Made by a program: the position numbers and the translations under genes
The notes under the pieces: model-generated
What the model was told of the DNA's origin: nothing
What the model saw: only the letters and a program-made list of their open reading frames with translations
Databases searched by the model: none
Shown: positions 1 through 61,939 of the stretch, one piece after another
How the letters are laid out: each line of letters opens with the position of its first letter
Position numbering within the stretch: position 1 is the first letter of the stretch
Assembly: GCA_035221665.1 (NCBI GenBank)
Contig: CM069147.1
Coordinates: forward strand, 20,398,001 to 20,462,000
Origin: Okamejei kenojei
Lineage: Eukaryota
Length of the DNA stretch: 64,000 bases
Direction: 5' to 3'

Positions 1-7
1 TTCTTAC

Positions 8-109
8 CCTGTTGCGCCTTTAATTTGAATCTTGTGAAAAATATAATCAGAATTACAATTAACAGTCCGCCCACTATACATCCAAGAATTTGTGTTTTGT
101 CAGTGGTTT
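8..109 (-). pseudogene. TM exon of paralog C of the V-C1 receptor family (ETTDKTQILGCIVGGLLIVILIIFFTRFKLKAQQG); upstream ectodomain exons missing, tail exons would lie left of the window
   Basis: 102-nt phase 1-1 exon flanked by ccag| and |gtaag, clearly homologous to the TM exons at 20969-21070 and 48592-48693. Confidence 0.8.
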
Positions 110-1829
110 CTGGATCTGGCGAAACATAGGACAATCTGCCACCGTGTGTGTGATTTGTTCCTTCGATAAATTCCAATATTACCTTACAATTCATGGACAA
201 TGGAGGACCGGCGTGGGGAGACCGCCGTGTCCTCCATTGTCCATGATAATGTGATTGTCCATAGGATAATGTGAACCATATGAACACATATTCAGGAATA
301 GGGAGACAAGAAAGCAGAGCATTTTAAGGTATCTATCCACCATGCTGCATAAAATATGCAATAAACACCAGATTCAATACTTCGTCGTCACATGTGACAC
401 GTCACAGTGAAATTATTTGCCTGCATACCCAGGGTAGCAAATAGTCGCCCATAAAGGACGCTTACAAAGTTACAAAGTACCCCCGCGCCAGGTCCCCATT
501 TGTTCTCTTCCCTTCCCTTCCACACGGCGGTCTCCCCACGCCGGGTCCTCCATTGTCCATGAATTGTAAGGTAATATTGGAATTTATCGAAGGAACAAAT
601 CACACACACGGTGGCAGATTGTAAAGAGGTTTGCTTATTAAGATAAAAGGATTGTATTTATTTTTGCAACGTAGCGCCCGGTACTTTGGCCCCAAGTTCA
701 AAATGTCCATGATCAATAAATGAACGTAAAAGTTCATTTATTTCATACTATCGGCTGAATTTCCCTGTTCTATCAGCCATATCCACGATAATGCACCGAG
801 CTTCGCCCACGAAATTCACCGCTGCTTTTTTGTAGTGTGCGTAGGACGTGCGAATGTGCGGGGATGGTTGTGCGGTGCGGGCTCGGTGGGCCGAAGGGCC
901 TGATTCCGGGATGTATCTCTAAACTAAACTATAAAGAAGGGCGAATTGGCATGAGACCTATGATTAATTCAACAAACAAAAGGTGATACGAATTGATAAA
1001 AGTAAAAGCTGGGAGTGTTAGAAAGGGAATCAATTATGAAAAAAACGTAAATATGTCAAGAGACTTTAGATTTTAAAAATCTGTTGAATTCCTGGAGATT
1101 CGTCTTAAACTACAATTGTAACGTCTTTTCATTTATTCCTCTATATCTAGTCACTCAATTCCTTTAAGTGTCCGAACTTTGAAAGCCACAGGCAAGAGTG
1201 AAACAAATTACAGATGTATTTTTAGTTTGGACTGCCTTATCATCTGAGTGACTTTAGTGTATAATCAAACCTATTCAAATATGGACATGAAATTAAGTGC
1301 ACAAGTAACTGACAGCTCTTCATGCGTTTTGTTCTCTTTCATGTGAAGATCATGTATCAGTTTCAGTGTATTACCTGACATTTTGTAGAGAAGTGCCAAA
1401 AGTCAGGCATTATAACATCATCTCTTTCAGATCAAAATAGTTGACTTTTTTTTCCCAGTGGCCCCATGATGTATCCGATTATGTTGGAAGGTCAGGTTGA
1501 ACGAAAATGTTTTCCTGACATCCTCTTTATAATATTATTTGGATGCATAGACTTTGCAGAGCAACTTTATGTGCAATTGCCTCAAAGAAACAGACTTTCT
1601 AATACATTGCTCAAATTACATTTTTATGGCCAGGTTAAGCATCGAACGTAATAAGGCGAGCATTCTGCAAATAGATTGTCTGAGCACAGCGCAACTTAAC
1701 TTTTAACCACAGAGTGTACGATATCATCAGCATGCCCGCGAGTGCAATTCTATTCTCTGCTGTTTGAGACTTTCCATTTGCTCGAGCTACAAACACACTG
1801 AAGGAAAAATGGAGACATGCAGCATCAAA

Positions 1830-9965: not shown

Positions 9966-10184
9966 ACAGATGTATGCAACATTTGCTCACAAAGTGGTCC
10001 ATGGTGTCATTGGCAGCCTCACGAATGACGCGCTGATGTTCTGCTGTGTGCTATCTCCTTGTTTTCTTTTCTGAGGGAAGTTTGAGGGGCATATGGGGAG
10101 AATTATATGCTATTCGCTTACGATTAGTGTACATAGGTATTTGGTGGCTAATGTGAATTTGTGAGCCAATAGTCTCTATCTGGA

Positions 10185-13800: not shown

Positions 13801-13904
13801 CCTTAAACTAATATATTTATATTTAGGTTCATAGAGACCGATTAGTACAGGTCTCATTGTGCCATCTTCAATCAATTGTGCTCATTAGAGTTCGAACGGT
13901 GGAG

Positions 13905-18468: not shown

Positions 18469-18606
18469 TCAACTTCTCGCTTTCCTTGAAACCTTTACAC
18501 CCGCGTACACTGAGTGTTTGTCATTCTGCTTAGATAGCGATGTTTCCTTGGAGTTGGAAAGCTGCAGCGAGGCGTAAGTCAGCTTGTCATCTCCGCCTTG
18601 TTTGGT
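18469..18606 (-). CDS. Copy A last exon, ITIMs LTYASL and SVYAGV
   Basis: acag|TKQGGDDKLTYASLQLSNSKETSLSKQNDKHSVYAGVKVSRKARS*; candidate AATAAA at 18397-18392. Confidence 0.88.
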   Translation of the reverse strand, partial: TKQGGDDKLTYASLQLSNSKETSLSKQNDKHSVYAGVKVSRKARS

Positions 18607-21600
18607 CTGTGAAATAAATTCAATATTGCCCGTTAACCCATTGTACAGTGACTCAGGAAAGCAATCGCTGTTTCAATACGATTGGAATATAACCAACAAT
18701 AAATATTTCCAGATTGCAGATTACGTATCAGAGTTTATGTTCATATGATTTATCCAGTCTTCTGCGGAGCCTGTCTTGGTCTAGCGAACAGTAGTGAATA
18801 TTCAATTTTATTCTCTCCACATTGCCATCAACACTTCGCTCACTCCTAGTACTACTTGCCTAAACACGGGACATTTTAAATGTCTAGTTAGCCTACAACC
18901 CCTCACGTGATTCGGGATGTGCGAAGAATTCGGAGCACCTCGGGAAACCCGCGAGGATGTAACAAAAAACGTTCAAACTTCACACTGACAGCACATAAGG
19001 CCAGAATTTGTTTTACTTTGTGGTTGGATATACGAGGAGAAGCCATAATAACTATCTCACTGTGTGATCTTCGTTAGATAATGTGGAAAAACTGTCAAGA
19101 GTGCTTGTCATATGTCCCAGATAGAACTCTGAAATTCTTACTTGCACCAGCACAACAGAATAAGTAAACATAGTACTCTGTAAATAATATAACAAACCTC
19201 TCTGAGGTCCAGCGCCATCCGGCCACCTGTCCCCTATTAAGGTGGATTTCCTGAATTCAGATTTCAATCTGTTCCTCTTGTCATTGTCTGAATTTATCAT
19301 ATTTCGTGGCGCTGGATATGCCCGCTGGATGGAAAAGCCTGTTGGCTGTTCCTTACCTTTCTTAATTTCCCATTAATTTTGGACAGCATTCTACATTAAA
19401 CCCGGGAACAGCGATAAGGGTAATTTGCATTGGGATGGCGTCGTGCAGCCGAATGTGCTGTTCGGCTCTATCTGGTTTCAACGTCACAATTGGAAATCGC
19501 CAATACGGCTTTTCCACAGTCGTACAAGGTCAAAATTATGTTCACGTTACTTCATAATCAACAGAAATTATTTCCTTTAATCTGATATTTACTTGGAATT
19601 ATTTTCGTGCAAATACTTTGCCCTTACCTCGGCATAGACAACATGCTCTTCCTTTCGTCGATATTTGGTAATTTTTTTGCCCTCACTCAAATTTATTGTT
19701 GCGTAGGCAGAGGCATCTTCACTTGACGCTTGTCGAACCTATTAGAAAGTGATATTCAACAAAGGTTAGCGGAGTGTCCGATGTAGTTCTTTAAAGAGTG
19801 AGTCTGAAACATAAACATACAGAATGATTGCAAAAAAAGGGGCACGATATCATTTGAACTGCATTCAATTATATTTCTCAGAATGTCATTCCCGAGAGGA
19901 TTCAAAGTGCCAGTGTTCAACTTGTTTACTAATTTTGTAGCTTGCGATTCATTTGAATAATTTCTCCTCCAAATGCGATCCATTTCTCACTTCCCGCCAA
20001 ATTATTCAGTCTCTGTTGTCGCCGTTTCCCACATCCCTATATCCCAGGCAACCTGGCTTATTTGAGCACTTGGTAGTGGGACGAGTTTGTCGTCTGCCCT
20101 TATGCGCTTACATGTACTTTCATTCTTAGGTCGCAATTTATAGTAGCGAAGTAACCGAGCAATCCGCATCACTTTGGGGTACAAGGGGAGTGGAGTATCT
20201 GGCCGAAAAGCACGCAAGAATAAACTACAAATCACCCGCAGGTACCGTTGGAGATTGGAATTGAACCCGATCAGGACGGAACTATGAGACTGCAGGTTTG
20301 CTCGTTGCGCCCCTTCCAATTTTAGAGGCGACAGGCAAAATGGTTTCCTTCTGCGCTGCAATGTTCTAAAATTATATGGAATGAAACTGATATATTCTCT
20401 GCTGATCGTATAATTTCTGTACTCGTCCATCCCTCTTGGAAACAAGAACAATAGCTTCACCTACCGGTTGTACGCTATGACTTGCTTCCACGGAGTTTGC
20501 ATTAATTCCTACATGGAAAAAAAATAAATCTCGAATAACATTTTAATGTCAGGAAAATGTAAGTTACGCATTAGATTATAATCACATCTACTGCCTATGG
20601 ACCCTTGAAGGCAGGCGACAATCCCGTATACTATCGGTGTACCACCGCCACAATGTAATATGTTGTACATTCATATATACCATCCGCGTTAGATCTGCAC
20701 AACCGGAGGAAGCGAATGTCTAAACCAAATAACTCATGCTTCAAATTTTGACGTTAAAGCTAATCAACACGCTATTAATACAGTTGTTTGAAAAACACAC
20801 ACTCGATCGATGATTGAATAATTCGAAAGGGCAGGGGAAATAATTGTAGTTTAACTTACAACTAATAACTAGTATTGCTTTGGCTTCTTGTTTCAATGAT
20901 TCTCAGAATGCACCAACCGCTTTTCTATCAACGGTTGTATGAAATGAAAAATGATGCAAGGTTCTTACCTCGTTGTGCCTTTAATGCGAATCTTGTCAAA
21001 ATTATAAGCAGAACTACAAATGACAGTCCGCCCGCGACACATCCGAGAATTAGAGTTTTGTCCGTGGTTTCTGGATATGGCGAAAAATGAGAACAGTGAA
21101 ACATAAATACACACAGGGACCGGGAGACAAGAAGGCAGAGCAACCGTTCAATATTTTCTGTACAAATAATTTATGACTGCCCCATGGCACGCATTGTACG
21201 GTAATGGCGAATTTATAGAACAGATCACATTATACGGTGGCTCTTTGCAGAGGTTTGGTTATTAAGTTGAGATGACTGTTCAATTTCATGTTTACAAAAC
21301 TACGCCCGGTAGTTTGACAACAGTTTAAAAAGTCAGAATGCATTCTATATTCTGGACCTGACACCCTGGACCCGCCACCGCAGGTTCCAGTAAATATGAA
21401 AAAGAACTGGATTTTTGTGTTTGCACAACTATCTAATTGTATTAGAAAATAGACACAAAAGTGCTGGAGTAACTCAGCGGGACAGGCAACATTCCTGGAG
21501 AGAGGAATGGGAGTCGTTTCTGATCGAAACCCTTGTTCAGATTGTATTTCTCGGCAGGCTGGAGTCAGCGTTAAATGCCTCCCGGCTTACCTTGCTCGAC

Positions 21601-23697
21601 AATGTAGCTGAAACTGGCAGGGACTGTAAGAGTTACGTGTGATACCAGGCAGGTGTAAACAGTTTTGCCTGGAGCAGGCTGCGTATCGCGCAAAAAACTG
21701 GAAGCCTCGTAAAGTCCATCCGCTGTTCTGTTTCTCACGGTTTCAATGCCGGTCAAAATTTCCACGTAGTTTCTTTGCCAGATGACTTTTAATTCCTCCG
21801 GATAAAACGCAGCCGTTTTACACACGAGTTGCGGCAAATGCGGCGCGCTTCCTTCAATAGCGACAATTTTCAATGGAGTTGGGGGAGCTGGAACAAAAAA
21901 AAGCGTGAAACTGCAAAATATATTTTATTTCAATGAACATTTGTCGCTGCCTCATGTTATCCGTGTGGTTGTTTGTTGAGTTTATACTTTTGTTAAAAAT
22001 TATTTTATGGAGGTTATCATGGTAAGTAGTGCAATTGAAACAAAGCACGAACTGCTGCCTCGCGGGGTTCACGCGATTATTAAGAAATAATGTGACACGG
22101 GTATTGCTTGGTAAGATTCCGTGACAGTGCTTTATGTTGAATTCAAAATCACGCGTTTCTTCTGAACATTTGCTCTTTCTTATCTGCAGATGGTAGTTAC
22201 AGAAAATGGACTGCACTGAATGGCAGAAGTACATCGGCGACAACAGTTGATTTTCTCGAAAAGCACGCAAGGATGAACCGAGCAAACTCTGTTTCTCATT
22301 CCATATATGTTATTAACAAGACATTAACGAGCATGGTTCCATTTGTGCTGGAGCCACTGTCAGTAATATTTACCGAGCGGGAGAGTTAATTGTACTTTAT
22401 TTTGTCAATGCATTGCGTAATCTCCTTAATGTCGTTTGTGTTTAAGCATTTTTACTTTCCTTAATTGATGTAATAACATCTTAGTGTACTATTATTATTA
22501 TTAATTAATAAAGCGATATCACCTTTTACTCCCTGTGCCATATAAATGATTACCAAGCAAACCTCTATTCCATACGATGATATAACCGTGGATCTATTTT
22601 GAAATAAGAAGTAATATCGGAGAATTGCAGTTGTAGTTCCTTTTTTTCTTTTTTCATTCCACGAACTTTCCTGGAGACTGTGAAAGTGTAAACAAAATTA
22701 TCCACCTCAAAACTGTGAGATCCATTTCTCCTCCGCTTTTAGTTGATGGGAAAGTTTGTCGGGTGGAAAATTTTGGAACTTTCTGGAAATTCAGAGTAAC
22801 GTGAATTTGGATGGGCATTTGAAAAGCTGGAGGTCAAAATATAATTGGACCTGCCAATTTACAAGAGCCACAACCATGGTAATGTCACTATGCCTTTGTA
22901 AGATAACCCGGAGTAATAAAAAAACAAAACTATAACAGAACTCTCGCTGCACGTATATTGACCGACGGATAGAATATTTTTGTTTGTTCCCTTTATTTCA
23001 GATTTCCATCTCGGAAGTAACCATTAAAATTATAGAACTAGATAAGATTAATATTTCCTCCACCAGCAAGCTTTAGTTACATTTGCAACAGATGAACATA
23101 TCCCACTACCCGTAACAAAGAGACACTTACTAACACAATTAGCTGGGAGCCAGTTCCATTGCCGATAATGTGCAGTTGGTGTTTCACTCGACAGTAATAT
23201 ATCCCGACGTCTGCGACACTCACATTCAGCAAAGTAAATGTACTGCTTCCCTTGTCTACTTTGAATTGTTTTCTGTCGTCCGGTTCCATAAATGTCTTCT
23301 CGCCCTCTCTCCACCAAGAAACGTCAGCGGTTTCTTTTAATATTGGAAATTTGCAGAACATGGACACACGGCTGCCCCTTGAGACCCTCAGGAATGCGGG
23401 GAATTGTTCCACTTTGCTCGAAGTTGCTTTTGTCAGAGGCAGAAATAAGTAAATATGATGAAAACAGTTGCACATACAGCACCAAGAAAAAGAGCCAATG
23501 GATACACAAATACAAAACAATTAGGAAATAATGGTTAGCCAATTGCAGAAACGTTGTAAATGTAATTTGCTGTGGCATACTAGTGTAAAATATTGACAAA
23601 TATGATTTGCTTAGCGAAATCGGTTCAGAAACTAAGCATACCTTGACAAACCAAAGCAAGAAGACCCATTGTACCGAAACCATTGCTTTCACGGCAT
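18469..23697 (-). CDS. Receptor copy A: inhibitory-type VJ-C1-TM-ITIM IgSF receptor (SIRP/NKp30-like); frame-disrupting 1-nt indels in this assembly
   Basis: Exons: leader 23642-23669 (homologous start 23697), V 23131-23426, C1 21591-21887, TM 20969-21070, cyt1 20465-20508, cyt2 19628-19738, cyt3 18469-18606. All GT-AG; phases match except at the V donor (296 nt). Confidence 0.85.
19628..19738 (-). CDS. Copy A cytoplasmic exon 2 (SAYATI, VVYAE)
   Basis: tag|VRQASSEDASAYATINLSEGKKITKYRRKEEHVVYAE|gtaag, phase 0-0. Confidence 0.85.
20465..20508 (-). CDS. Copy A cytoplasmic exon 1
   Basis: Polypyrimidine tract, gtag|GINANSVEASHSVQP|gtaggt; phase 1-0 bridges the TM and cyt2 exons exactly. Confidence 0.8.
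20969..21070 (-). CDS. Copy A TM exon (uncharged)
   Basis: ETTDKTLILGCVAGGLSFVVLLIILTRFALKAQR|gtaag. Confidence 0.9.
21591..21887 (-). CDS. Copy A Ig C1-set exon
   Basis: LVCKTAAFYPEELKVIW...YTCLVSHVTL, C1 signature; phase 1-1. Confidence 0.93.
23131..23426 (-). CDS. Copy A Ig V-set exon with germline J-like motif
   Basis: MFCKF...VSWWR...DVGIYYCRV...GNGTGSQLIV. Confidence 0.92.
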
Positions 23698-41424: not shown

Positions 41425-42639
41425 GGAAAAGCTGCAGGGAGGTATGTCATCTTGTCATCTCCGCCTCGTTTGGTCTGTGAAAGAAATGCAATATTGCCTG
41501 TTAGTACATTGTCCAGTGATCAAGGAAAGCAATCAATTTTTCAACACAATTGGAATGTAGTCAACAATTATAATTTCCAAATTGCAGATAACGTGTAAGA
41601 GTTTATGTTCATATTATTTATCCAGTCTTCTGCGGATCCTTTCATGGTCCAACACAACAAATTCGTGGTAACACAAATATCCATTAAAAATATTCCCATT
41701 TTATTCTCTCTGCATTGCCATCAACACTTCGCTCACTCCTAGATTATACCACTTGCCTAAACATGGGGCATTTTAAATCTCTAATTAGCCTACCACCCCT
41801 CACGTGATTCGGGATGTGCAAAGTATTCGGAGCACCTCAGGAAACCTGCGAGGACGCACCAAATAACGTTCAACCTTCACACTGACAGCACCGAAAGCCA
41901 GGATTTGTTTTACCTTGTGTATAGACAAGGAGAAGCCATAATATCTCTGTCACTGTGTGATCTTCGTAGATAAAATGGAAACACTGTCAAGAGTCAAGAG
42001 TGCTTCTCATATGTCCCAGATAGAACTAAGATATTCTTAGCTGCAGCAGCACAACAGAATAAGTAAACATAGTACTCTTTAAATAATATAGTAAACCTCT
42101 CTGAGGTCCTGTGCCATCCTGTCACCTGTCCCCTTTGAGGTGGATTTCCTAAATGCAGATTTCACTCTGTTCCTCCTGTCATTGTCTGAATTTCTCATAT
42201 TTCCTGGCACTGAATATGACCGCTGGGTGTAAAAACCTGTTGCCGGTTACCTTGTCTGTTTCTTAATTTTGCATTTATATTGGACAGCATTCTACGTTAA
42301 AATCCGAGAACAAAGATAAAGGTAAATTTGCAGTGGGATGTATCGTGCAGCTGAATTTGTTGTCTGCTCTATCTGGTTTCATGCCACAATTCAAAATTCG
42401 TCATTACGCGCTTTTCCGTAGTCGTACAAGATCAAAATTTTGTTCACGTAACTTCATAATCAACAAAAATAAATCCCTTTAACCTGATGTTTACTTGGAA
42501 TGCATTTCGTGCAAACACTCTGCCTTTACCTCGACATGAACAACATGCTCTTCGTTGCATCGATATTTGGTTTTTTTTTTCCTCTCACTCAAGTTTAGTG
42601 TTGCTAGGCAGAGGCAGCTTCACTTGACGTTTCCCGAAC
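41425..42639 (-). pseudogene. Orphaned, decayed ITIM exons of copy B (42530-42639 and ~41425-41474)
   Basis: Homologous to A cyt2/cyt3; TAC->TAG by 1-nt deletion, Tyr->His, 2-nt deletion after the LTY-equivalent, last exon truncated. Confidence 0.88.
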
Positions 42640-42643
42640 ATAT

Positions 42644-45600
42644 TGTAGTGGCCATTTGGGCTTGTTTTGTGTGTCATTAATGATGGCATGTGTCTTTAAA
42701 TTTTAGACTGCCAGTTATATTGTGGATGGGATTTATGACGTATTTTAGGGCGTGTTTGGAGCTGGGTTTCTTGCGCAGAAGCTTAGTTTTTAGTTTAGTT
42801 TTGGACCAGCATGGGGGAGGAGGCATATGCTTTGACCATGTGAAGTGTAACGGAGACACGAGGTGTTTTCTAACCTTTAAAGCAATATGCTGGAGTTCGA
42901 TGAAGATTATAGTGTGTGAGACGGAAGAAGCTGGGATGTACCTTATTGTTTTTAATCAACAATAAATATTCTATTGATCAAAAGACTGTGTTGTGAAGAT
43001 GTATCTGTGAAGAAGCTCTGAAGGTCTCTGACGGAGAGCGCGCATGAGTATAACATTCTCCTTAATTATAGAAACATAGAAACATAGAAATTAGGTGCAG
43101 GAGCAGGCCATTCGGCCCTTCGAGCCTGCACCGCCATTCAATATGATCATGGCTATTCATCCACCTCAGTATCCTGTACCTGCCTTCTCTCCATACCCCC
43201 TGATCCCTTCAGCCACAAGGGCCACATCCAACTCCCTCTTAAATATGGCCAACGAACTGGCCTCAACTACCTTCTGTGGCAGAGAATTCCACAGATTCAC
43301 GACTCTCTCTGTGAAAAACGATTTTCTCATCTCGGTCCTAAAAGACTTCCCCATTATCCTTAAACTGTGACCCCTTGTCCTGGACTTCCCCAACATCGGG
43401 AACAATCTTCCTGCATCTAGCCTGTCCAACCCCTTAAGAATTTTGTAAGTCTCTATGAGATCACCCCTCAATCAGCGAGTACAAGCCAAGTCTATCCATA
43501 TGTTCTTCATATGGAAGTCGAGCCATCCCAGAAATCAGTCTGGTGAACCTTCTCTGTACTCCCTCTATGGCAAGAATGTCTTTCCTCAGGTTAGGAGACC
43601 AAAACTGTACGCAATACTCCAGGTGTGGCCTCACCAAGACCCTGTACAACTGCAGTAGAACCTCCCTGGTCTTGTACTCAAATCCTTTTGTGATGAATGC
43701 CAACATACCATTTGCTTTCTTCACAGCCTGCTGCACCTGCATGCCTACTTTCAATGACTGGTGTACCATGACACCCAGGTCTCGCTGTATCTCCCCTTTT
43801 CCTAATCGGTCACCATTCAAATAATAGTCTACCTTCCTATTTTTGCCACCAAAGTGGATAACCTCACATTTATCCACATTATACTGCATCTGCCATGCAT
43901 TTGCCCACTCACCCAGTCTATCCAAGTCATCCTGCAGCCTCCTAGCATCCTCCTCACAGCTAACACTGCCCCCAGCTTCGTGTCATCCGCAAACTTCGAG
44001 ATGTTGCATTTAATTCCCTCGTCCAAATCATGAATGTATATTGTAAATAGCTGGGGTCCCAGCACTGAGCCTTGCGGCACCCCACTAGTCACTGTCTGCC
44101 ATCCTGAAAAGGACCTGTTCACTCCTACTCTTTGCTTCCTGTCTGCCAGCCAGTTCTCTATCCACATCAATACTGAACCACCAATACCGTGTGCTTTAAG
44201 TTTGTTTACCAACCTCTTGTGTGGGTCCTTGTCGAAAGCCTTCTGAAAGTCCAGATACAACACATCCACTGCTTCTCCCTTATCCACTCTACTAGTTACA
44301 TCCTCAAAAAATTCAATAAGATCCGTCACACATGATTTACCCTTGGTAAATCCATGCTGACTTTGTCCAATGATTTCACCACTTTCCAAATGCGCTGCTA
44401 TCCCATCTTTAATAATTGACTCTAGCAGTTTCCCCACTACCGATGTTAGACTAACTGGTCTGTAATTCCCCGTTTTCTCTCTCCCTCCCTTTCTAAAAAG
44501 TGGGGTTACATTATCTACCCTCCAATCCTCAGGAACTATTCCAGAATCTAAAGAGTTTTGAAAAATTATCACTAAGGCATCTGCTATTTCTGGGGCTACT
44601 TCCTTAAGTACCCTGGGATGCAGCCTATCTGGCCCTGGGGATTTATCAGCCTTTAATCCATTCAATTTACATAACACCACTTTCTGGCTAACCTGGATTT
44701 CACTCATTTCCTCCATCTCATTTGACCCGCGATCCCCTGCTATTTCCGCCAAATTATTTATGTCTTCCTTAGTGAAGACAGAACCAAAGTAGTTATTCAA
44801 TTGGCATGCCATGTCCTTGTTCCCCATGATCAATTCACCCGTTTCTGACTGCAAGGGACCTACATTTGTTTTAACTAATCTTTTGCGCTTTACATATCGA
44901 TAAAAACCTTTGCAGTCAGTTTTTATGTTTCCTGCCAGTTTTCTTTCATACTCCATTTTCCCTTTCCTAATTAAGCCCTTTGTCCTCCTCTGTTGGTCTC
45001 TGAATTTCTCCCAGTCCTCTTGTAGGCTGCTTTTTCTGGCTAGTTTGTACGCTTCATCTTTTTCTTTGATACTATCCCTGATTTCCTCGTTATCCACGGA
45101 TGCGCCACCTTCCCTGATTTATTCTTTTGCCATACTGGGATGAACAATTGTTGTAGTTCATCCATGCAGTCTTTAAATTCCTTCCATTGCATATCCACCG
45201 TCAACCCTTCAAGAATCAATTGCAGTCGATCTTGGCCAATTCACTTCACATACCCTCAAAGTTACCTTTCTTTAAATTCAGGACCCGTGTTTCTGAATTA
45301 GCAATGTCACTCTCCATCCTAATGAAGAACTCAACCATATTATGGTCACTCTTGCCCAAGGGGCCACGTACAACAAGGCTGCTAACTAACCCTTCCTCAT
45401 TACTCAATATCCAGTCTAGAATAGCCTGCTCTCTCGTTGGTTTCTCCACATGCTGGTTTAGAAAAACTATCCCACATACATTCCAAGAAATACTCTTCCT
45501 CAGCACCCCTGCCAATTTGATTCACCCAATCTATATGTAGATTGAAGTCACCCATTATAACGGTTTTACCTTTGTTGCACGCATTTCTAATTTCCTGTTT

Positions 45601-47345
45601 GATGCCATCCCCAACTCCACTACTACTATTAGGAGGCCTGTACACAACTCCCACTAGCGTTTTCTGCCCCTTGGTGTTTCGCAGCTCCACCCATATCGAT
45701 TCCACATCCTCCAAGCTAATGTAATTCCTTTATATTGCATTAATCTCCGCTCTAACCAGCAACGCTACCCCACCTCCTTTTCCTCTCTGTCTATCCTTCC
45801 TGAATATTGAATATCCCTGGATGTTCAGCTCCCAGCCTTGGTCCCTCTGGAGCCATGTCTCCGTGATCCCAACTATATCATAATTATTAATAGCTATCTG
45901 CACATTCAACTCATCCACCTTATTACGAATGCTCCTTGCATTGAGACACAAAGCCTTCAGGCTTGTTTTTACAACACTCTTGGCCCTTTTACAATGATGT
46001 TGAAAAGTGGCTCTTTTAGATTTTTGCCCTGGATTTGTTTTCCTGCCACTTTTCACCTTGCTACCTATTGCTCCTATCCTCATTTTACACCCCTCTGTCT
46101 CTCTGCTCACACATTAAGAAACCCTCCACTTCTTATTCTCCGTTTGTTATTTATTTCTTCTTTCCTCCCTACGTGTTGCATCTGGCTGCTTCTCTTCTCT
46201 GCCTCCTGCCTCACAAACAGACTACTTGCCTTCTCTATTTGAGTCCCTCCCCCCAACCGATCTAGTTTAAAGTCTTCCCAGTAGCCTTTGCAAATCTCCC
46301 CGCCAGGATATTGGTTCCCCTCGGGTTCAAGTGCAACCCATCCTTTTTGTACAGGTCGCACCTTCCCCAAAAGAGGTCCCAATGATCAGGAAACTTGAAT
46401 CTCTGCGCTCTGCACCAGTCCTTTAGCCATGCATTGATCCTCCACCTTGCTCCATTCCTACTCTCACTGTCGCGTGGTACAGGCAGTAATCCCGAGATTG
46501 TAACCTTTGCGGTCCTTCTCCTTAACACTCTTCCTAACTCCCTAAATTCTCCTTTCAGGACCTCCTCTCTTTTTCTACCTATGTCATTGGTACCTATATG
46601 TACCACGACCTCTGGCTCTTCTCCCTCCCATTTCAAGATATCTTGGACACGTTCAGTCACATCCCGGATCCTGCCACCAGGGAGGCAAACTACCATCTGG
46701 GTCTCCTGACTGCGTCCACAGAATCGCCTATCTGACCCCCTAACTATAGAGTCCCCTATTACTGCTGACCTCCTCTTCTTTTCCTTACCCTTCTGAGCAA
46801 CAGGGCCGGTCATTGTACCGGAGGCCCGGTTGCTGTTGCTACCCCCAGGTAGGCTGTGCCCCCCAACAGTACTCAAACAGGAGTACTTATTGCCAAGGTG
46901 TACAGCCATCGGGGTACTCTCTAGTCCCTGCCTCTGCCCCATGCCTCTCCTAACCGTGACCCACTTTTCTGCCTCCTGTGGTTTTGGAGTGACCACCTGT
47001 CTGTAGCTCCTCTCTCTGACTTCTTCACTCTCCCTGACCAGACGGAGGTCATCGAGATGCTGCTCCAGGTACCGAATACGGTCCATTTGGAGCGCCATCT
47101 TGACGCACCTGGCGCAGATGTGGACGTCTGGAGAGCTATCTGACTGCATGACCTCCCACATCTGACATCCAGAACAGTAGACTGCCCTGGCACTCATCCT
47201 CCCCCTTACCCTGGATACAATACAATATACAATACAATACAAAGCAAGGATTTTAGCTGATTATGTAGATTATGTAAGGATTATGTAGTCCATTTAGCGG
47301 CTAGAGGGAGTAATCTCTTGAACGATATAAAAACCTGCCGCTACA
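42644..47345 (+). mobile_element. Solo LTR (~0.5 kb excluding the nested CR1) inserted in the copy B splice acceptor
   Basis: TGTAGTGG...CCGCTACA termini, AATAAA at 42961, TSD catat (42639-42643) / cctat (47346-47350) matching the single cctat in A (19738-19742). Confidence 0.8.
43068..47245 (-). mobile_element. Near full-length CR1 LINE nested in the solo LTR (open ORF1 with SGNH esterase; ORF2 frameshifted)
   Basis: ORF1 46262-47242 GDSIVR/HIGTND/DGLHL; APE motifs NARS, ETW, GDFN, SDH; RT FADD; (TTTCTATG)n tail. Confidence 0.95.
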
Positions 47346-50300
47346 CCTATTAGAAAGTGATACTCAACACAGTTAGCAGAGGGTCTGATGTAGTTCTTTA
47401 AAGAGTGAGTCTGAAACATAAACATACAGAATGATTGCAAAAAAGGGGCACGATACCATTTGAACTGCATTCAATTACATTTCTCAAAATGTCATTCCCG
47501 AGAGGATTCAAAGTGCCAGTGTTCAACTTGTTTATTAATATTGTAGCTTGCGATTAATTTGAAAAATCTCTCTTCCAAATGCGATCCATTTCTCACTTCC
47601 CGCCACCTTATTCCGTCTCCGTTATCGCCGTTTCCGGCTTCCCCATAGATTTCATCAGCGATAGCAGGGCCCTCTGTATATCCCCGGCAACCTGGCTAAT
47701 TTGAGGACTTGCTAGTGGGACGAGTTTGTCGTCTGCCCTTATGCACTTACATGTACTTTCATTCTTAGGTCGCAATTTATTGTAGCGAAGTAACCGAGCA
47801 ATCCGCATCACTTTGGGGTACAAGGGGAGTAGAGCATCCGGCGGACAAGCACACAAGAATAAGCTGCAAATCACACATTCTTGGAGATTAGGATTGAACC
47901 CGATCAGGACGGAACTGTGAGTGCACCCCTTCCAATTTTAGAGGCGACAGGCAAAATGGTTTCCTTCTGCGCTGCAATGTTCTAAAATTATATGGAATTA
48001 AACTGATATATTCTCTGCTGATCGTATAATTTCTGTACTCGTCCATCCCTCTTGCAAACAAGAACAATAGCTTCACCTACCGGTTGTACGCTATGACACG
48101 CTTCCACGGAGTTTGCATTAATTCCTACATGGAAAAAAAAGAAATCTCGAATAACATTTTAATGTCAGGAAAATGTAAGTTACGCATTAGATTATAATCA
48201 CATCTACTGCCTATGGACCCTTGAAGGCAGGCGACAATCCCGTATACTATCGGATTACCACCGCCACAATGTAATGTGTTGTTCATTATACCTTCATATA
48301 TACAATCCACGTTAGATCTGCACAACCGGAGGAAGCGAGGGTCTAAACCAAATAACTCATGCTTCAAATTTTGACGTTAAAGCTAATCAACACGCTATTA
48401 ATATAGATGTTTGAAAAACACACACTCGATGGATGATTGAATAATTCGAAAGGGCAGGGGAAATAATTGTAGTTTAACTTACAACTAATAACTAGTATTG
48501 CTTTGGCTTCTTGTTTCAATGATTCTCAGAATGCACCAACCGCTTTTCTATCAACGGTTGTATGAAATAGAAAATGATGCAAGGTTCTTACCTCGTTGTG
48601 CCTTTAATGCGAATCTTGTCAAAATTATAAGCAGAACTACAAATGATAGTCCGCCCACGACCCATCGGATAATTAGAGTTTTGTCCGTGGTTTCTGGATA
48701 TGGCGAAAAATGAGAACAGTGAAACATACATACACACACAGGGACCGGGAGATAAGAAGGCAGAGCAACCGTTCAATATTTTCTGTACAAATAATTTATG
48801 ACTGCCCCATGGCACGCATTGTACGGTAATGGCGAATTTATAGAACAGATCACATTATACGGTGGCTCTTTGCAGAGGTTTGGTTATTAAGTTGAGATGA
48901 CTGTTCAATTTCATGTTTACAAAACTACGCCCGGTAGTTTGACAACAGTTTAAAAAGTCAGAATGCATTCTATATTCTGGATCTGCCACCGCAGGTTCCA
49001 GTAAATATGAAAAGGAACTGGATTTTTGTGTTTGCACAACTATCGAATTGTATTAGAAAATAGACACAAAAGTGCTGGAGTAATTCAGCGGGACATGCAA
49101 CAACTCTAGAGAGAGGAATGGGAGACGTTTCTGATCGAGACCCTTGTTCAGATTGTATTTCTCGGCAGGCTGGAATCTGCGTTAAATGCCTCCCGGCTTA
49201 CCTTGCTCGACAATGTAGCTGAAACTGGCAGGGACTGTAAGAGTTACGTGTGATACCAGGCAGGTGTAAACAGTTTTGCCTGGAGCAGGCTGCGTATCGC
49301 GCAAAAAACTGGAAGCCTCGTAAAGTCCATCCGCTGTTCTGTTTCTCACGGTTTCAATGCCGGTCAAAATTTCCACGTAGTTTCTTTGCCAGATGACTTT
49401 TAATTCCTCCGGATAAAACGCAGCCGTTTTACACACGAGTTGCGGCACACTTCCTTCAATAGCGACAATTGTCAATGGAGTTGGGGGAGCTGGAACAAAA
49501 AAAAGCGTGAAAAAATATATTTTATTTCAATGAACATAATTGTCGCTGCCTCATGTTATCCATGTGGTTGTTTATTGAGTTTATACTTTTGTTAAAAATT
49601 ATTTTATGGATGTTATCATGGTAAGTAGTGCAATTGAAACAAAGCACGAACTGCTGCCTCGCGGGGTTCGCGCGATTATTAAGAAATAATGTGACACGGG
49701 TATTGCTTGGTAAGATTCCGTGACAGTACTTTGGTGAATTCAAAATCACGCGTTTCTTCTGAACATTTGCTCTTTCTTATCTGCAGATGGTAGTTACAGA
49801 AAATGGACTGCACTGAATGGCAGAAGTACATCGGCGATTTTCTCGAAAAGCACGCAAGGATGAACCGAGCAAACTCTGTTTCTCATTCCATATATGTTAT
49901 TAACAAGACATTAACGAGCATGGTTCCATTTGTGCTGGAGCCACTGTCAGTAATATTTAGCGAGCGGGAGAGTTAATTGTACTTTATTTTGTCAATGCAT
50001 TGCGTAATCTCATTAATGTCGTTTGTGTTTAAGCATTTTTACTTTCCTTAATTGATGTAATAACATCTTAGTGTACTATTATTATTAATTAATAAAGCGA
50101 TATCACCCTTTACTCCCTGTGCCATATAAATGATTACCAAGCAAACCTTTATTCCATACGATGATATAACCGTGGATCTATTTTAAATAAGAAGTAATAT
50201 CGGAGAATTGCAGTTGTAGTTCCTTTTTTTCTTTTTTCATTCCACGAACTTTCCTGGAGACTGTGAAAGTGTAAACAAAATTATCCACCTCAAAACTGTG

Positions 50301-51279
50301 AGATCCATTTCTCCTCCGCTTTTAGTTGATGGGAAAGTTTGTCGGGTGGAAAATTTTGGAACTTTCTGGAAATTCAGAGTAACGTGAATTTGGATGGGCA
50401 TTTGAAAAGCTGGAGGTCAAAATATAATTGGACCTGCCAATTTACAAGAGCCACAACCATGGTAATGTCACTATGCCTTTGTAAGATAACCCGGAGTAAT
50501 AAAAAAACAAAACTATAACAGAACTCTCGCTGCACGTATATTGACCGACGGATAGAATATTTTTCAGTTTGTTCCCTTTATTTCAGATTTCCATCTCGGA
50601 AGTAACCATTAAAATTATAGAACTAGATAAGATTAATATTTCCTCCACCAGCAAGCTTTAGTTACATTGCAACAGATGAACATATCCCACTACCCGTAAC
50701 AAAGAGACTTACTTAACACAATTAGCTGGGAGCCAGTTCCATTACCGATAATGTGCAGTTGGTGTTTCACTCGACAGTAATATATCCCGGCGTCTGCGAC
50801 ACTCACATTCAGCAAAGTAAATGTACTGCTTCCCTTGTCTACTTTGAATTGTTTTCTGTCGTCCGGTTCCATAAATGTCTTCTCGCCCTCTCTCCACCAA
50901 GAAACGTCAGCGGTTTCTTTTAATATTGGAAATTTGCAGAACATGGACACATGGCTGCCCCTTGAGGCCCTCAGGAATGCGGGGAATTGTTCCACTTTGC
51001 TCGAAGTTGCTTTTGTCAGAGGCAGAAATAAGTAAATATGATGAAAACAGTTGCACATACAGCACCAAGAAAAAGAGCCAATGGATACACAAATACAAAA
51101 CAATTAGGAAATAATGGTTAGCCAATTGCAGAAACGTTGTAAATGTAATTTGCTGTGGCATACTAGTGTAAAATATTGACAAATATGATTTGCTTAGCGA
51201 AATCGGTTCAGAAACGAAGCATACCTTGACAAACCAAAGCAAGAAGACCCATGTACCGAACCATTGCTTTCACCGGCAT
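47341..51279 (-). CDS. Receptor copy B: activating-type VJ-C1-TM(Arg) IgSF receptor with short Tyr-free tail, ~263 aa
   Basis: Exons 51225-51279, 50713-51009, 49202-49489, 48592-48693, 48081-48124, 47341-47346 (GTG TAG); total 792 nt, all phases consistent. Confidence 0.87.
48081..48124 (-). CDS. Copy B cytoplasmic exon 1
   Basis: GINANSVEACHSVQP, phase 1-0. Confidence 0.8.
48592..48693 (-). CDS. Copy B TM exon with Arg
   Basis: ETTDKTLIIRWVVGGLSFVVLLIILTRFALKAQR; CGA at 48667-48665. Confidence 0.9.
49202..49489 (-). CDS. Copy B Ig C1-set exon
   Basis: Same C1 motifs as A; 9 nt shorter, in frame. Confidence 0.93.
50713..51009 (-). CDS. Copy B Ig V-set exon with J-like motif
   Basis: 297 nt, phase 1-1; DAGIYYCRVKHQLHIIGNGTGSQLIVL. 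Confidence 0.93.
51225..51279 (-). CDS. Copy B leader exon
   Basis: MPVKAMVRYMGLLALVCQ|gtatgc, phase 1; the start Met is uncertain. Confidence 0.7.
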
Positions 51280-51769
51280 ACTGCAAAAGAGAAGGGTTTG
51301 CATAAGAAATAGGTTTTCATAGAATGCCTGAAGCGTGTGACTCCGACGCCGTAAATCACATGACTAAGGCAACGTGATGCATTTTGAGTATATTTTTTGT
51401 TTCAGCGAGTATGATCTAGCAAATATGTTTTCTTCGATTTCTTCCGCCAAAATGATTTCTCTCCCAGCCATTGTTGGTGCACCGCGTTTGGACAACACGT
51501 ATTTAAATCAATTTACCTGTACCTCGTTCTCAAATTGAGACTTTGTCCTACGGGAGCATATAGATACAAGGGCAGTCAAATATTCAGCCTCGTATATTTC
51601 GTGCTTACGATCACAGATTATCCCACCTTTAATGCAGAAGGGTGTGATGACCTTTGACTTAGTCACGCTGCGAATTTATTACATTGCAGCCAAAAACCCC
51701 AAGCCCCAACTGCAGCATTTAAATGAGATACATTATAGCCAAGTGATGTGTTGATAAGGATTTGATCAT

Positions 51770-55263: not shown

Positions 55264-58200
55264 TGTCAAGTCAAACTGAAATGAAAGGACAGGTGCAGAG
55301 AAATGCTAAATTGAAATCACAAGACAGTGATTAAAGTGGGCGGAACCCCAGCCTGCCGGGTTCTGCCCGGGGCTTTTTAAAGGGGCACACAGCACCAGAA
55401 GCCAGGAAAGAAGATGGAAGAGACTTGCGGGCGGCAAAACTTGAACAGTAAATCAAAAGGACTGCCCGAAAAGACTGCCGCGATAGCCAGAAGAGGCAAG
55501 CAGGACTGATTTTCTACAGACCTGATTGGCAGCCGGTTTTTCAGCTGCTAAAGACTAAAACTGCTAAAGACTAGAACTGCTAAAACAGCTAAAGACTAGT
55601 CTGCCAAAATAAAAGGTGGAAAAGAAGTATTTGGTCTGAGTGAATCCAGTTCATCATTTCGGGGTAGATAAATCAAATCCCTTTCAAGCGGGGAAACTGC
55701 AAAAACATTAGAAGACTTGACAATGAAAAACCATCGTGGGGCCAGGAGATCTGGAAACCTGGAAAAGAGACCGTTAAGTCAGGATAAAACATGGCTGATT
55801 AAGTTACTGGAAAGTCAGCTGAGCAGCTCAAGGTGGAGAGGACAACAGCAAAACGGGCATTCTCTCGTCTTGTTAACAACATCATTAGGAACCATGAAGA
55901 AATGTCTGGAGGGGAGCTCAGGAACAATTTCAACAACTCATGCAGGAGGCCGAAAAAGTCATGGAAGCCAATGGCGATGTGGAGGCGGGACTCATTGCAG
56001 AGCTGGAGGCGGAGCTGGTGCAGGTGAGGAAACTGTGTTAACTGAACAGCAAACAGCTGACCTGGCAAAAACTGCAAAGGAGTGCGAGTCAAAACTAAAA
56101 AAGGTCAAAGGGCTCATCCAGGACACTCTATGGGCAAACCTTGGGAATTTTGAATTATCCATCTCACTACAGACAGCAGATGGTGCATGTGAACTTGCTG
56201 CTGCCAGAAAAACCTAAGAACACTCGAGCTTCTCGTCCCCAAGCTGGTTTCCAGGAAGGCTGACTTCATACAGGGAAGAATAAAGAAGGACACTGAAGGA
56301 TTAGCACAAGCGGCAAATGCTTTCAATTATCCTTCACCAGCCATCAGACTGAGACCCATGGCCCTTCCTAAGTTTACTGGAAACAAGCGTGACTTTTATA
56401 GATGGAGGAAGGATTGGGAAGCACTGCAAAAGCAAGGTGAACCCACTGGGTCAAAGGAGGTGAAGAAGGTTCAATTGCTGGACAGTCTGGAGGACACAAT
56501 TACAAGAGACCTCCGCCTCACAAGTTAGAACACTAACGATGATATCTTTCGTGTCCTAGAGAACCAGTTTGGAAATCAAACAGCTATTGCTATTGAGATA
56601 GTGGAGGAGCTTCAAAGAATCCCACCGGTCAGAGGACATCAGCCACGGAAAATAGTGGAATTAATTCAAGCTGTGGAAAAGGCGCTCAAGGACTTGAGCG
56701 ATCTCGGAGACACAGGCGCTATTAAAAATCCACTGATGACAAAATCAATTGAAATTAAGCTACCAGTAACCCTCAAAAAGGAATGTCTGGTTTATGTAGC
56801 AGACAAGTAGAATGCTGTGGCACCAGAGAAATAGTTTGACAGTCTCTTGTCATTCCTCAAAGAGCAGGAGAGCATATATGAACAGCTCGAGCAACTGGGG
56901 GACGAGGAGCCGAGTAGAAAGGAAATTTGGACTGAACCAAGACATGCCAGAACCAGGTCCACCAAGTTAGGAAATGACCACACAGGTTGTGTAGTCTGTG
57001 GTGACGTAAAGCATAAAAGAAAGCTGTACTTCTGCAAGCAGTTTCGAGGGCTAAAGCTGACAGAGAAAAGAGCTGCAGTAAAGAAGTTGGGAGCATGCAA
57101 AAAGTGTCTTGAAGTTCATGATGATGATGGTTCACACTGCAAACCTGCATATCTCTGTAAAAATCAAATCTGCAAGGATGAACAGACTCCTGAGCATCAT
57201 TATTATCTGTGCCCAAACCAAGAGATGAGGAAAAGCAGTGTGGATCAGAGAAGGAATAAATTTGGTCCAGAGGAAGATAAAAGCAAGAAGAAATATAGTG
57301 GACCAAGCGGAGTTTTTCAGCAAACTTCCACCAGAGTTGGCAAAACAATGTGTTCTCCAACACTGCATCAAGAGCCTTCAACACTGCAAAGCATCAGCCA
57401 AGCCTCCTAAAGGAAGGTGGACTGCAAGAGCACCCAGTGATTATGATGCTTCTGGAGGTCGTAGCAAATGCTGGACAAAAGGTTGGGACATTAATTGACT
57501 TGGCTTCAGATACCAAGTATCTATGCCTCGGAGGATTAGAACTGTTGGAGATCTCATTCTGTGGGATGGACCACTGGGAAAGACTGTTGGAGGTTGGAGG
57601 TTGTCATCCTGAGCTGTTTGAGGGGCTTACCATGTCAGCCCACATGTCCAAAACACTCTTCGCGCGATCAATGAGAGCAGCTGCTTTAAAGTATGAGGAG
57701 CTCACTGACGCAGTCCCTGAGGAACTTTCACCAAACGGACAGATCGCCGTCAAAGTCCAGAAGTCAAGTACATCTGCCGCAAATCGGGACTTCTTGGATT
57801 GGTGGAAGTGGGATAGCATTGGATCAGCATGCGAGCCAAAGTGCGGGGGTTGCCACTGTGGAAACTGCCAGCCAGGAAAAGAAATGACTCTTACAGAAGA
57901 GAGAGAGCACGAGGTGGTAAGGGAAGGCCTCACCTACGTGACTGGAGACCATCACAGTAAAGACCCACATTGGCATGCTAGCTATCCTTGGTTGGAAGGC
58001 CCGGCTTCTCTACCAAGTAATAAAAGGACAGTGGAAGCCACATTTCTCAGGACGGAGAGGCAGCAATCCAGAGAACCTGAATGGAAAAGTGCCTACACAG
58101 CTCAGGTGCACGACATGGTGGACCGAAAGGCTGCAATCAAATTGTCCGAAGACATGATTGCAAACTGGAAGGGACCAGTGTGGTATGTGAGTCACCTTAT

Positions 58201-61200
58201 TGCTCCAAACCCCCACTCTGTCACGACCCCAGTGAGACTAGTGTGGAACAGCAGCCAAAAGTGCAATGGTGTCAGCTTAAATGATTTGCTGATGAAAGGT
58301 CCAGACGTCCTCAACCAAATTCGTGCGGTCTCCTCAGATTCAGGGGCGGAATCTATGATGCTGCTCTGGGAGACATAAAGAAGATGTATGGTTGGAGGAC
58401 TGTGAAGTACACTTACACAGATTCCTTTGGCGAGATTCCGAGGACGAGGAGCTGGGAGAGTATGCTATCACAAGAGTGAACATCGGAGACAAACTTGCGG
58501 GGTGCATTGCACAGTTGGCAATGCGTGAGACTGCTAATCTTCCTTCTTTTACCAACCTCAAGGATGAGCAGCAAGTACTCCAGAAAGACAGCTATGTTGA
58601 CGACATCCTCACACCTCACAACAGCCTCGACCAGTTGAGAATCATCACAGTAAATGTGGAACGAATCCTAAAAGCTGGTGGGTTTGAGCTCAAGCCTTGG
58701 GTTCTGTCTGGCCAAAGTGGGAGGAAGGAGGACAGTGATGCTTTAAAGAAAAGCAAAACAAAAAGCATGATCTACCAAACCAAATGCATGATGATGATAA
58801 CAAGCCACTTGGTCTGGGCTACATTGTTGAAGAGGACATGCTCCACGTTATAGTGGGAATCAATTTCTCCAAGAGAAAGAAAAAGATGCGGCTTGGTCAA
58901 GGCCTTCTACAAGAGCAAATCAAAACTCAGGCGCCAAATCCCCTAACAAGAAGAGAGCTTCTCAGCCGGGTAGCAGGGCTATATGACCCCATCGGCATAG
59001 TGGCTCCTATTAAGCAAAAGGGAGCGATCCTAGTACGCAGAGCTTTCCAAGAAGCAAAAGAGGGAAGCTGTTTGGTCAGATACACATGGGATATGGCACT
59101 CTCAGATGGACTCAGGGAGGATGCAATAAAGCCCTTTGAAGAGTACGTACAACTTGGAAAAGTCAAGTTCGTCAGGGCACTGACTCCCTCTTGCTCCTCA
59201 ACTGAACCCTTGGGAATCACCTTTTCTGACAGAAGTGAGCACACCTACGGGGCAGCGATGTATCTGAGATGGGATTCAGACCATGGCCCAATTGTCAGAC
59301 TTGTGGAATCCAAGGCCAAGTTAACTCCCTTGGACCACAGAGGAGACACTATCAAAGCGGAGATGTGAAGCAGTGTTCGCCTCACGCTTAAAGAAGTATT
59401 TTGAGCTACACAGTCAAATTCAAGTGGAGAAGTGGTATCATCTTGTGGATAGCCAAACTATCCTTGGTGCAATACAGCGAGAAAGCTACGGAATTAAGAC
59501 ATTCTTCGCCAATCGGATTGGAGAGATTCAAACAAGCACCAATATTCAGGACTGGCGGTGGATTCCTGGCCCAGAAAACATCGCTGATGTAATCACCAGA
59601 GGTGTCAGCCCTCAAGACCTTGATCAGTATTCGGAGTGGCAAAATGGACCGAAGTTCCTGGTATTGCCTGTGAGTGAGTGGCCAATAAAATCAGTAAAGA
59701 ACTGGCTGCCACTGCCAGAGAGAACATCAACAAGTTACAGAAGAAAGCTTTTGTTGCAGCACTATCAAGAGCCAAGGTAGTGAACCAAGAACCGGAACCA
59801 ACAAACCCAAAGAGACCACCTGCAGGGTCAGCTATTCAGAACCTTGTTGATGTCAAGTGGTTCAGCATTCTAACTCGACTGATCAAGACAGTCGCATGGA
59901 TTTGGAGAGCAGCGAAGAGGTTTCTTGGCAAGAACAAAGCCCTAAACAATCCAAAGTGGGAGGCCATCTCTTTGACAGGAGTCATTACAGTAAGAGAAGG
60001 AGAAAATGCTCTAAAAGACATTTTTTGTGCTCTGCAATTGGGCATGACTTTCCCAAGCACCACAACAGATCGACTGGTAGCCTATAAAGACCAAGATTCT
60101 GGGCTGATGGTTTGTGGTGGCAGAGTGCAGAGCTTTGAAGAGGATAAAGTTGCTGTTCCCATCCTGCCCGTTGATGCCTGGGTGTCCATGCTGCTAGCTC
60201 GGGAGGCTCACAGGGAGAGTCATGACAGAGTGGCTGGGACCTTGCTTAAAATGCGAAGAAAGGCTTGGGTCATAAAAACGAGAATTGCTAAAAAAGTTGT
60301 TGATCACTGCATAATCTGCAAGAAAGCAAACCAAAGAAATGTCAACAAGTAATGAGTGATCTACCGCCTGAAAGAACTGAACCTGCTGCTCCTTTTGAGT
60401 TTACAACAGTAGACCTCTTTGGACCCTACCACGTACACGATGACGTCAAGAAGAGGGTAAAACTCAAAGTCTGGGGAGTTGTCTTCTGCTGTATGGCCAG
60501 CAGAGCCATCCACACAGAGTTAGTCAACACCTTATCAAGTGAAGGGTTTCTGATGGCTTATCAAAAATTCACAGCAATCCGTGGGCACCCCAAGAAGATC
60601 TGGTCAGATCCAGGCACAAATTTTATTGGCGCAAAACCAGTCTTAGAGAAACTATATAGATTTTTGGACAACCTGGACAGAGCAGCTTTGGGGGAGAACA
60701 CAGCTAAAAATGGACAGAGTGGATGTGGAAAATCCATCCTGCTGATTCTCCACACAGGAATGGCGCTGCGGAAGCTGCTGTGCGTGTTGTGAAGAGAGCG
60801 CTCCAAAGTTTTGGAAAAGAATCGTCACTCAGTTATAGTGCGTTTCAGACAGCTCTTTACATAGCAGCAAACCTGTCAAATGAACGTCCAATCGACGCCA
60901 GGATACAAAGCCGGGAAGACTGCATTCAGTACATTACACCAAATACGCTTCTGCTTGGCCAAGCATCTCAGTGCGGAGATATTAAGTGTTTTGACTTTTC
61001 CAGCTACCCCTACAAAAGACTTAGAACAATGCAGTCAGAGGTGAACAAGTTTTGGAAGAGCTGGAGCCAACTCGCTGGTCCTAACTTGTTTATAAGGAGC
61101 AAGTGGCACACCACTCAGAGAAATGTCACTGCCGGAGATATTGTCTGGTTAAGTGACCAAAATGCACTGACGGGGCAATTCAAGCTGGGCAGAGTCATCA

Positions 61201-61939
61201 GCTCCAATCCAGATCGCAAAGGCATTGTGAGAGACGTTAATGTACGGATCTTCCCAAGTTACTCCATTCCTCTGACAAGGGCTTTGAAGGGAAGAGCAAT
61301 GCATTTCACTCAGGGGAAGGAGAGGATCCAAGCCACGATTGTTCACAGGGACGTTAGGCGGCTGGTTGATTACTTCCAGTAGAAGAACAAGACAGAAATG
61401 CATCAGGAGACCAAGTTCAAACCCAGACTTCAAAGTTTGACTTTAAAGCGTCGATCTCCCAAGTGGTTCCATTGGAAGATCGAGTGGGAGGTGTCAAGTC
61501 AAACTGAAATGAAAGAGAAATGCTAAATTGAAATCACAAGACAGTGATTAAAGTGGGCGGAACCCCAGCCTGCCGGGTTCTGCCCGGGGCTTTTTAAAGG
61601 GGCACACAGCACAAGAAGCCAGGAAAGAAGATGGAAGAGACTTGCGGGCGGCAAAACTTGAACAGCAAATCAAAAGGACTGTCCGAAAAGACTGCCGCGA
61701 TAGCCAGAAGAGGCAAGCAGGACTGATTTTCTACAGACCCGATTGGCAGCCAGTTTTTCAGCTGCTAAAGACTAAAATTGCTGAAGACTGAAACTGCTAA
61801 AACAGCTAAAGACTAATCTGCCAAAATAAAAGGTGAAAAATAAGTATTTGGTCTGAGTGAATCCAGTTCATCATTTCGGGGTAGATAAATCAAATCCCTT
61901 TCAAACGGAGAAACTGCAAAAACATTAGAAGACTTGACA
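55264..61939 (+). mobile_element. BEL/Pao LTR retrotransposon with both LTRs, degenerate; LTRs 55264-55722 and 61492-61939
   Basis: TG..CA LTRs, ATGCC TSD, PPT gagtgggagg; Cys/His knuckles, LIDLAS protease, YVDD RT, LYDPIG RNase H region, VDLFGP/SDPGTNF integrase; multiple stops and frameshifts. Confidence 0.95.

Follow-up and report, generated by a model that had tools for sequence, protein, structure and literature searches.

The window analysed here, a stretch of 64,000 nt from Okamejei kenojei (CM069147.1), contains three paralogs, which we call A, B and C and which are all read on the minus strand. Judging from their exons, A and B encode type I immunoglobulin (Ig) receptors arranged in tandem, and each combines a V-set and a C1-set exon with a transmembrane (TM) exon. 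Gene B begins with an intact leader exon of phase 1 (51225..51279) that resembles the leader of the Narcine protein P0002. It continues with a V exon (50713..51009; Pfam V-set) that holds a J-like, Gly-rich last strand within the same exon, a C1-set exon (49202..49489; Pfam C1-set), a TM exon (48592..48693) and tail exon 5 (48081..48124), which is intact and lacks tyrosine. The gene is predicted to end at 47341..47346, where the acceptor of exon 6 is followed by GTG TAG (Val-stop). The model is open from leader to stop, with intact splice sites and matching phases, and encodes 263 aa.

The V and C1 exons of gene A differ from those of B by two to four substitutions. Its leader and V exons lie at 23131..23697, its C1-set exon at 21591..21887 (Pfam C1-set) and its TM exon, uncharged and with the residues LGCVA, at 20969..21070. 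The tail exons of A were located by a search with the tails of homologs: exon 5 at 20465..20508, exon 6 at 19628..19738, with SAYATI and a second tyrosine motif at the exon end, and the last exon at 18469..18606, with the ITIM LTYASL and the ITIM-like SVYAGV before the stop. The tail of A thus has three motif matches (LTYASL, SVYAGV and SAYATI). Close to its start, the C1 exon of A holds three codons that B lacks (49448 in B, 21837-21845 in A), and homologs have the longer form. In both genes the acceptor of the TM exon is changed from AG to AT (48694-48699 and 21071-21076), and C retains AG; the next AG lies six bases further on and preserves the frame, at the cost of two residues.

Paralog C consists of an orphan TM exon (8..115; LGCIV) with some intron similarity, and no V or C1 exon for it was found in window positions 1-18300. 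Upstream of it, at 3090-3198, a last tail exon survives as an isolated relic, with stops and 73% like that of A; it appears to be a further decayed member of the family. An LTR retrotransposon occupies 55264-61942 upstream of B and is missing at the matching place of A; its 460-bp LTRs differ by 3%, its reading frames are broken, and we take it to be Bel/Pao-like. Several copies of transposase fragments, presumably Tc1/mariner-like to go by the text of their open reading frames, are found at 4872-5840 and 28605-31293.

The most conspicuous difference between A and B, which an earlier note on this DNA had missed, appears to be in their tails, with ITIM-type exons in A and a tail cut by an insertion in B. 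The insertion (42644..47345; 4.7 kb) is bounded by TG...CA and by short inverted termini, and a target duplication of 5 bp flanks it, with one mismatch between ATAGG at 47350-47346 and ATATG at 42643-42639. The insertion sits at the acceptor, one base into tail exon 6. Presumably it is an LTR-like element, and the element nested within it at about 43071-47260 is LINE-like, which we take to be LINE/CR1. The first base of the final GTG TAG of B comes from the old exon 6 and the remaining bases from the insertion. Downstream, at 42639-42643, the second copy of the target duplication has AT for AG, so that the duplicated acceptor before the old exon is abolished. The relic of exon 6 (42530..42639) further has a 1-bp deletion in its first Tyr codon that leads to a stop, and its second Tyr codon now reads His; in the relic of exon 7 (41428..41474) frame and similarity are gone past the ITIM tyrosine. 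Because the insertion lies one base into exon 6 and exons 6 and 7 are broken, B is predicted to carry a tail of 25 residues without tyrosine, the splice itself being a prediction. Cryptic tyrosine-bearing frames in intron 4 were considered as tail sequence and dropped, as the actual tail exons match homologs.

The ectodomains of A and B are 97% identical over 190 columns; A bears ITIM exons yet is frameshifted as assembled. Divergence between the two genes is 1.2% from upstream of the leader through V and C1, rises to 3.0% between intron 3 and the proximal part of intron 5 and to 8.1% in the distal part, and reaches about 15-16% across the tail region; it amounts to 4.3, 10.6, 10.3, 6.0 and 8.9% in five upstream blocks. 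A trough of low divergence between higher flanks fits gene conversion or repeated unequal exchange, and this profile supports the conversion-like homogenisation that the earlier note had claimed. Pairs of opposing receptors show similar homogenisation, with conversion that spares the signalling exons documented in the sections of the source on such pairs (PMC3210942). The Phe codon at 48643 is common to A and B, is lacking in C and is mostly or wholly lacking in the contigs of three other sequencing runs (X5, X6 and X7, described below). At 48643 and 49300 A and B share letters that are absent or minor in contigs of other runs, which may be a sign of very recent exchange between them. We also considered that A and B are alleles set side by side in the assembly, a reading disfavoured by the 4-16% divergence of their flanks and by their different insertions.

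Within the homogenised tract the TM exon stands out. A and B differ there at 5 of 102 bases, all inside 24 bp (48647..48670, minus strand). The five codons at 48670-48656 in B read ATC CGA TGG GTC GTG (IRWVV) and those at 21047-21033 in A read CTC GGA TGT GTC GCG (LGCVA); the corresponding residues of C are LGCIV. These are the codons that the earlier note had given, with four nonsynonymous differences in five codons: Leu>Ile at 48670, Gly>Arg at 48667, Cys>Trp at 48662 and Ala/Val at 48657. The fifth difference in the exon is synonymous (CTG>CTA at 48647) and lies 10 bases beyond the fourth. With C as the outgroup, four changes are derived in B (Ile, Arg, Trp and the silent one) and one in A (Ala). 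The view that the differences arose in B therefore stands for Ile, Arg and Trp and falls for Ala, which is derived in A since C has Val as B does. As had also been proposed, the GxxxG motif (G-C-V-A-G) is present in A and missing from B, and Gly-Cys is ancestral and Arg derived, given C, the predominance of Gly and Ala over Arg in this column of the family (detailed below) and the contig depth of four runs.

The clustering of the differences moderately exceeds chance. With the 67 substitutions in the 4011 aligned columns of the homogenised tract as background, P is 0.028 for five in 24 bp at any place in the tract, 0.005 for any of the exons and 0.0005 for the TM exon; the local background is higher (38 in 1262) and gives 0.11 anywhere and 0.007 in the TM exon. 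One further cluster of equal size occurs in the tract, inside a repeat in intron 3. No donor for the island closer than A was found within the window, with the exception of one chance match with three or four mismatches at 4056, and none was found among the best 40 of 536 rows from the run contigs. The Arg is residue 4 of the best 19-residue membrane window. On a rough, position-independent scale it lowers the predicted membrane insertion score of B (-1.5 versus -3.3).

Contigs from four sequencing runs were aligned to 47300-51400. Two runs (X1 and X5) share one species label and two (X6 and X7) are from relatives, for three species labels altogether. X6 and X7 are runs with small shares, and the analysis makes no use of the other small-share runs. 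The search for sequencing runs listed no RNA run, which carries no weight as to expression. At 48667 and 48662 the entire contig depth is Gly-Cys in all four runs, and Arg and Trp occur in none of them. Logan contigs are described, in the part of the source concerned, as simplified graphs (10.1101/2024.07.30.605881), and since simplification drops minority variants, the contigs show only that Arg is not the majority form. X5 carries the Ile without the Arg. Among the best 40 of 536 rows there are eight sites at which the letter of B is missing from all runs, and at seven of them A has the other letter. Three of these seven B-only sites among the rows listed, one of them silent, are in the island and span no more than 21 bp (clustering P=0.002), which looks like a single tract or multi-base event; four other B-only letters among the rows listed lie outside the island in 47931-51400. 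In distal intron 5 of X1, the pieces exactly like B have depths of 12-16 against 9 for the A-type arm, yet Gly-Cys is what the TM contig shows; the depth is only a hint. Piece 23 of X7 extends 24 bases into the insertion, below the 31 needed for bridging, and hints that a relative may share the insertion. In X5 the depth of A/B-type contigs is about sixfold that of the contigs of other paralogs, and in X1, X6 and X7 it is two- to threefold, a hint of possible copy-number variation.

The runs also bear on gene A. As assembled, A has four 1-bp indels relative to B, three in the leader (23642-23697) and one at the V donor (23131), where the V exon is one base short (296 nt). Among the pieces listed, the leader pieces of X1, X5 and X7 are ungapped against B, and those listed for X6 do not cover the leader. 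The frameshifts are either the mark of a dead inhibitory copy in this haplotype or assembly errors.

To place the Arg in its family we assembled 185 rows, comprising 183 fetched proteins and two window models, of which 81 passed our filters (a length of no more than 520 aa, presence of a C1 motif, and a TM window within 60 residues of the motif; nine isoforms or cluster members were removed by hand). The TM-distance filter removed at least one Arg protein (P0068). In the column of the Arg of B the 81 rows have 36 Gly, 17 Ala and 14 Arg, the last being 13 of the 79 homologs and B. Two or more tyrosine motifs are found in none of the 14 Arg rows versus 35 of the 67 others (Fisher p=1.7e-4), although short tails may partly reflect incomplete gene models; tails longer than 60 aa occur in 1 of 14 versus 45 of 67, counts that incomplete models may likewise affect. 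In a tree of the 62 rows with a full ectodomain, the 12 Arg rows require 10 changes, which is not below what shuffling yields (102 of 500 shuffles are as low). Several Arg rows are sister to ITIM-tailed rows in this tree, and among 10 independent pairs 5.6 go with the association, none against it and 4.4 are tied (median p=0.03, range 0.016-0.125). The tree places A and B in a supported group of 15 rows; its named members come from rays and sawfishes, which makes a batoid the most likely source. All 10 Arg proteins that were looked up are from sharks or rays, and 7 of the 10 lie on contigs equal in size to ones that bear non-Arg members. The automatic names on the homologs include 'SIRPA-like', 'NCR3LG1-like' and 'tapasin-related-like'. 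A protein search returned no near-identical full-length ortholog: the best named match has 67% identity in C1, and one unnamed single-exon product without a TM has 88%. A PDB search gave generic Ig matches only.

SIRP receptors have a V-C1-C1 ectodomain, and an activating member has a central TM Lys for DAP12. The family shares with them V and C1-set domains and the presence of both ITIM-tailed and charged-TM members. B itself was rejected as a SIRP, having a single C1 domain rather than two and an N-terminal Arg without a TM Lys; in the PDB search SIRPalpha (2wng) scored no better than Ig light chains. In NKp30 (NCR3) a single V domain is followed immediately by a TM with an Arg, and B was rejected as a counterpart, as a C1 exon stands between its V and TM exons. 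It was also rejected as UrIg or UrIg2, which are multi-domain chains, as opposed to two Ig domains in B; UrIg2 has ten in the source passages. The non-rearranging VJ-C1 genes PRARP, tetrapod VJC1 and UrIg, as far as the passages on them go (PMC10751288, PMC12227049), are like A and B in having a single-exon V with a J-like last strand followed by a C1-set domain; those VJ-C1 passages contain no Arg/ITIM pairs, and the likeness to PRARP rests on domain layout.

Several known receptor systems come close to A and B. Receptors of the FcalphaRI type share with B an N-terminal Arg in a type I TM helix and a short tail, whereas their ectodomain is unrelated to the V + C1 of B and the adaptor of B is putative (PMC1440944). 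In partners of FcR-gamma, according to the same passages, the Arg lies in the N-terminal TM segment, at position 3 in FcalphaRI, and the flanking sequence matters little. Activating KIR and Ly49 receptors resemble B in combining a basic TM residue with truncation of an ITIM tail and in arising recurrently within their family (PMC2213150). KIR2DS differs in its central Lys for DAP12 and its point stop, where B has an N-terminal Arg, a stop made by an insertion and decayed tail exons still in place; for KIR2DS the order of Lys gain and tail stop was held to be indeterminable (Abi-Rached and Parham 2005, PMC2213150). As in KLRC, KLRI and PIR, where the passages at hand describe it (PMC3210942), the ectodomain exons of A and B are far closer than their signalling exons and flanks. 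Unlike in those systems, homogenisation here spans the TM exon and the first tail exon, leaving just a 24-bp island. The inhibitory-to-activating switch is thus an already-known mechanism and a textbook principle, and our surprise at it is moderate. In the literature searched, whose coverage is partial, the cluster is nowhere described as paired receptors, and the supplements of PMC10751288 and PMC12227049 may list it.

B probably behaves as the activating partner in a receptor pair, whichever of two histories, described next, produced it. Among the features of an activating receptor, B has a TM Arg in the same column as 13 homologs and a predicted short tail without ITIMs. A signalling role is better supported than the earlier note could show, because of the loss of the tail in B and the family-wide tie of Arg with ITIM-less tails. 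As to history, the best explanation, which we hold tentatively and with somewhat less than even confidence, is that B, an activating-type receptor, derives from the inhibitory A, having lost its tail first and acquired the Arg tract later. Long ago, an LTR-like element would have entered tail exon 6 one base in, so that splicing from exon 5 would give Val-stop, and the ITIM exons of B would then have decayed. Conversion or unequal exchange would meanwhile have kept leader, V, C1 and TM near-identical to A, and with near-identical ectodomains the same ligand would be expected for both. Later, or in some copies only, a short tract of change would have brought in the Arg, close to where the membrane helix ends on the outer side, and eliminated the Cys and the GxxxG motif. 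Speculatively, that loss may release the helix from pairing with itself. The Arg would find its partners in the two Asp of an ITAM dimer of the zeta family, either CD3zeta/CD247 or, if rays have one, FcR-gamma. FcR-gamma was not found in sharks in the relevant part of a 2014 survey (PMC4016189), and another study reports cd247 from T cells of the bamboo shark (PMC11372145); for this reason CD3zeta would be an equally likely partner of B. What the data show is the anatomy of the sequence, the divergence profile and the family pattern; splicing, expression, adaptor binding and the order of the steps are inferred. A late arrival of the Arg is favoured by the contigs of the four runs, which have neither Arg nor Trp, by the Ile without Arg in X5 and by the clustering of the B-only sites. 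Points that weigh against this scheme are that no donor of the tract was found in the window or among the contig rows listed, that A is frameshifted as assembled, that incomplete gene models may account for many of the short tails among homologs and that the Arg lowers the predicted insertion score. A minority Arg copy hidden in all four runs could leave the order of the steps undecided.

The alternative that survives best, though we regard it as rather doubtful, is the history proposed by the earlier note, in which B is an old activating paralog and conversion from A overwrote everything but an Arg island kept by selection; function would be the same and the timing different. The density of the island, 5 in 24, is what a tail divergence of 15-16% would give, the tail relics of B are old, and the shared Phe codon at 48643 puts homogenisation four bases from the island. 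In known paired receptors, moreover, the signalling exons are spared by conversion, as the passages on them report (PMC3210942). However, no contig in four runs with three species labels has Arg or Trp, the TM contig of X1 is Gly-Cys despite the deeper B-type pieces of its intron (depth being only a hint), and the B side holds four of the five changes. That selection preserved an old island is not supported, given that Arg and Trp are the majority form in none of the four runs, the silent B-derived change within the island, the Ile without Arg in X5 and a count of five differences in 24 bp that an unconverted patch at 15% divergence would often show as well (binomial P=0.29).

B may instead be a tail-less decoy or a decaying copy, with Arg-Trp a private, unselected multi-base mutation that has no adaptor role, which we consider unlikely. 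The pair is unseen in the contigs of four runs and comes with a silent change, four more B-only letters lie outside the island in 47931-51400 among the rows listed, and fewer than two tyrosine motifs are also found in 32 of the 67 non-Arg rows. However, the change falls in the exact column in which 13 homologs without ITIM tails have their Arg, and the frame and splice sites of B are intact from leader to stop, with V and C1 separated from A by so few substitutions. That the assembly consensus is in error at Arg and Trp is very improbable: they are uncorroborated, and the four 1-bp indels of A lie beside short runs and are missing from the listed leader pieces of X1, X5 and X7, so local errors are possible, but Arg and Trp are substitutions rather than indels, the adjacent Ile is present in X5 and the Val in C, the transition/transversion ratio of the tract (34:33) matches that of the flanks (87:90 and 56:50), and a match to the family Arg column would be a coincidence. 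The transition/transversion balance thus bears no signature of error.

Taken more broadly, and with less confidence than our reading of B itself, the large VJ-C1 cluster of elasmobranchs and chimaeras, laid out like an antigen-receptor chain that does not rearrange, might be a paired-receptor system in which Arg has entered one TM position many times, and the switch might here be caught in order, with the transposon first, tail-less Gly-Cys copies persisting in relatives, and the Arg later and still segregating; CD3zeta would be a possible partner, FcR-gamma being reported absent from the lineage. We consider this broad version possible but somewhat unlikely. If true, it would show the switch at work in a family that resembles antigen receptors and belongs to the oldest lineage of jawed vertebrates, make the order of tail loss and charge gain readable from haplotypes and provide a clear test of the adaptor used by Arg-type receptors in cartilaginous fish.

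By eye, the Arg-bearing TMs fall into two kinds, a distinct type with Asp-His at its end and the common TM with Gly changed to Arg, to which B belongs. The distinct TM, with an N-terminal Arg and an inner Asp/Glu-His pair, is found in P0018, P0035, P0057, P0058, P0068, P0093, P0117, P0185 and P0189, which are shark proteins with unrelated ectodomains. It is possibly an old activating module spread by exon shuffling.
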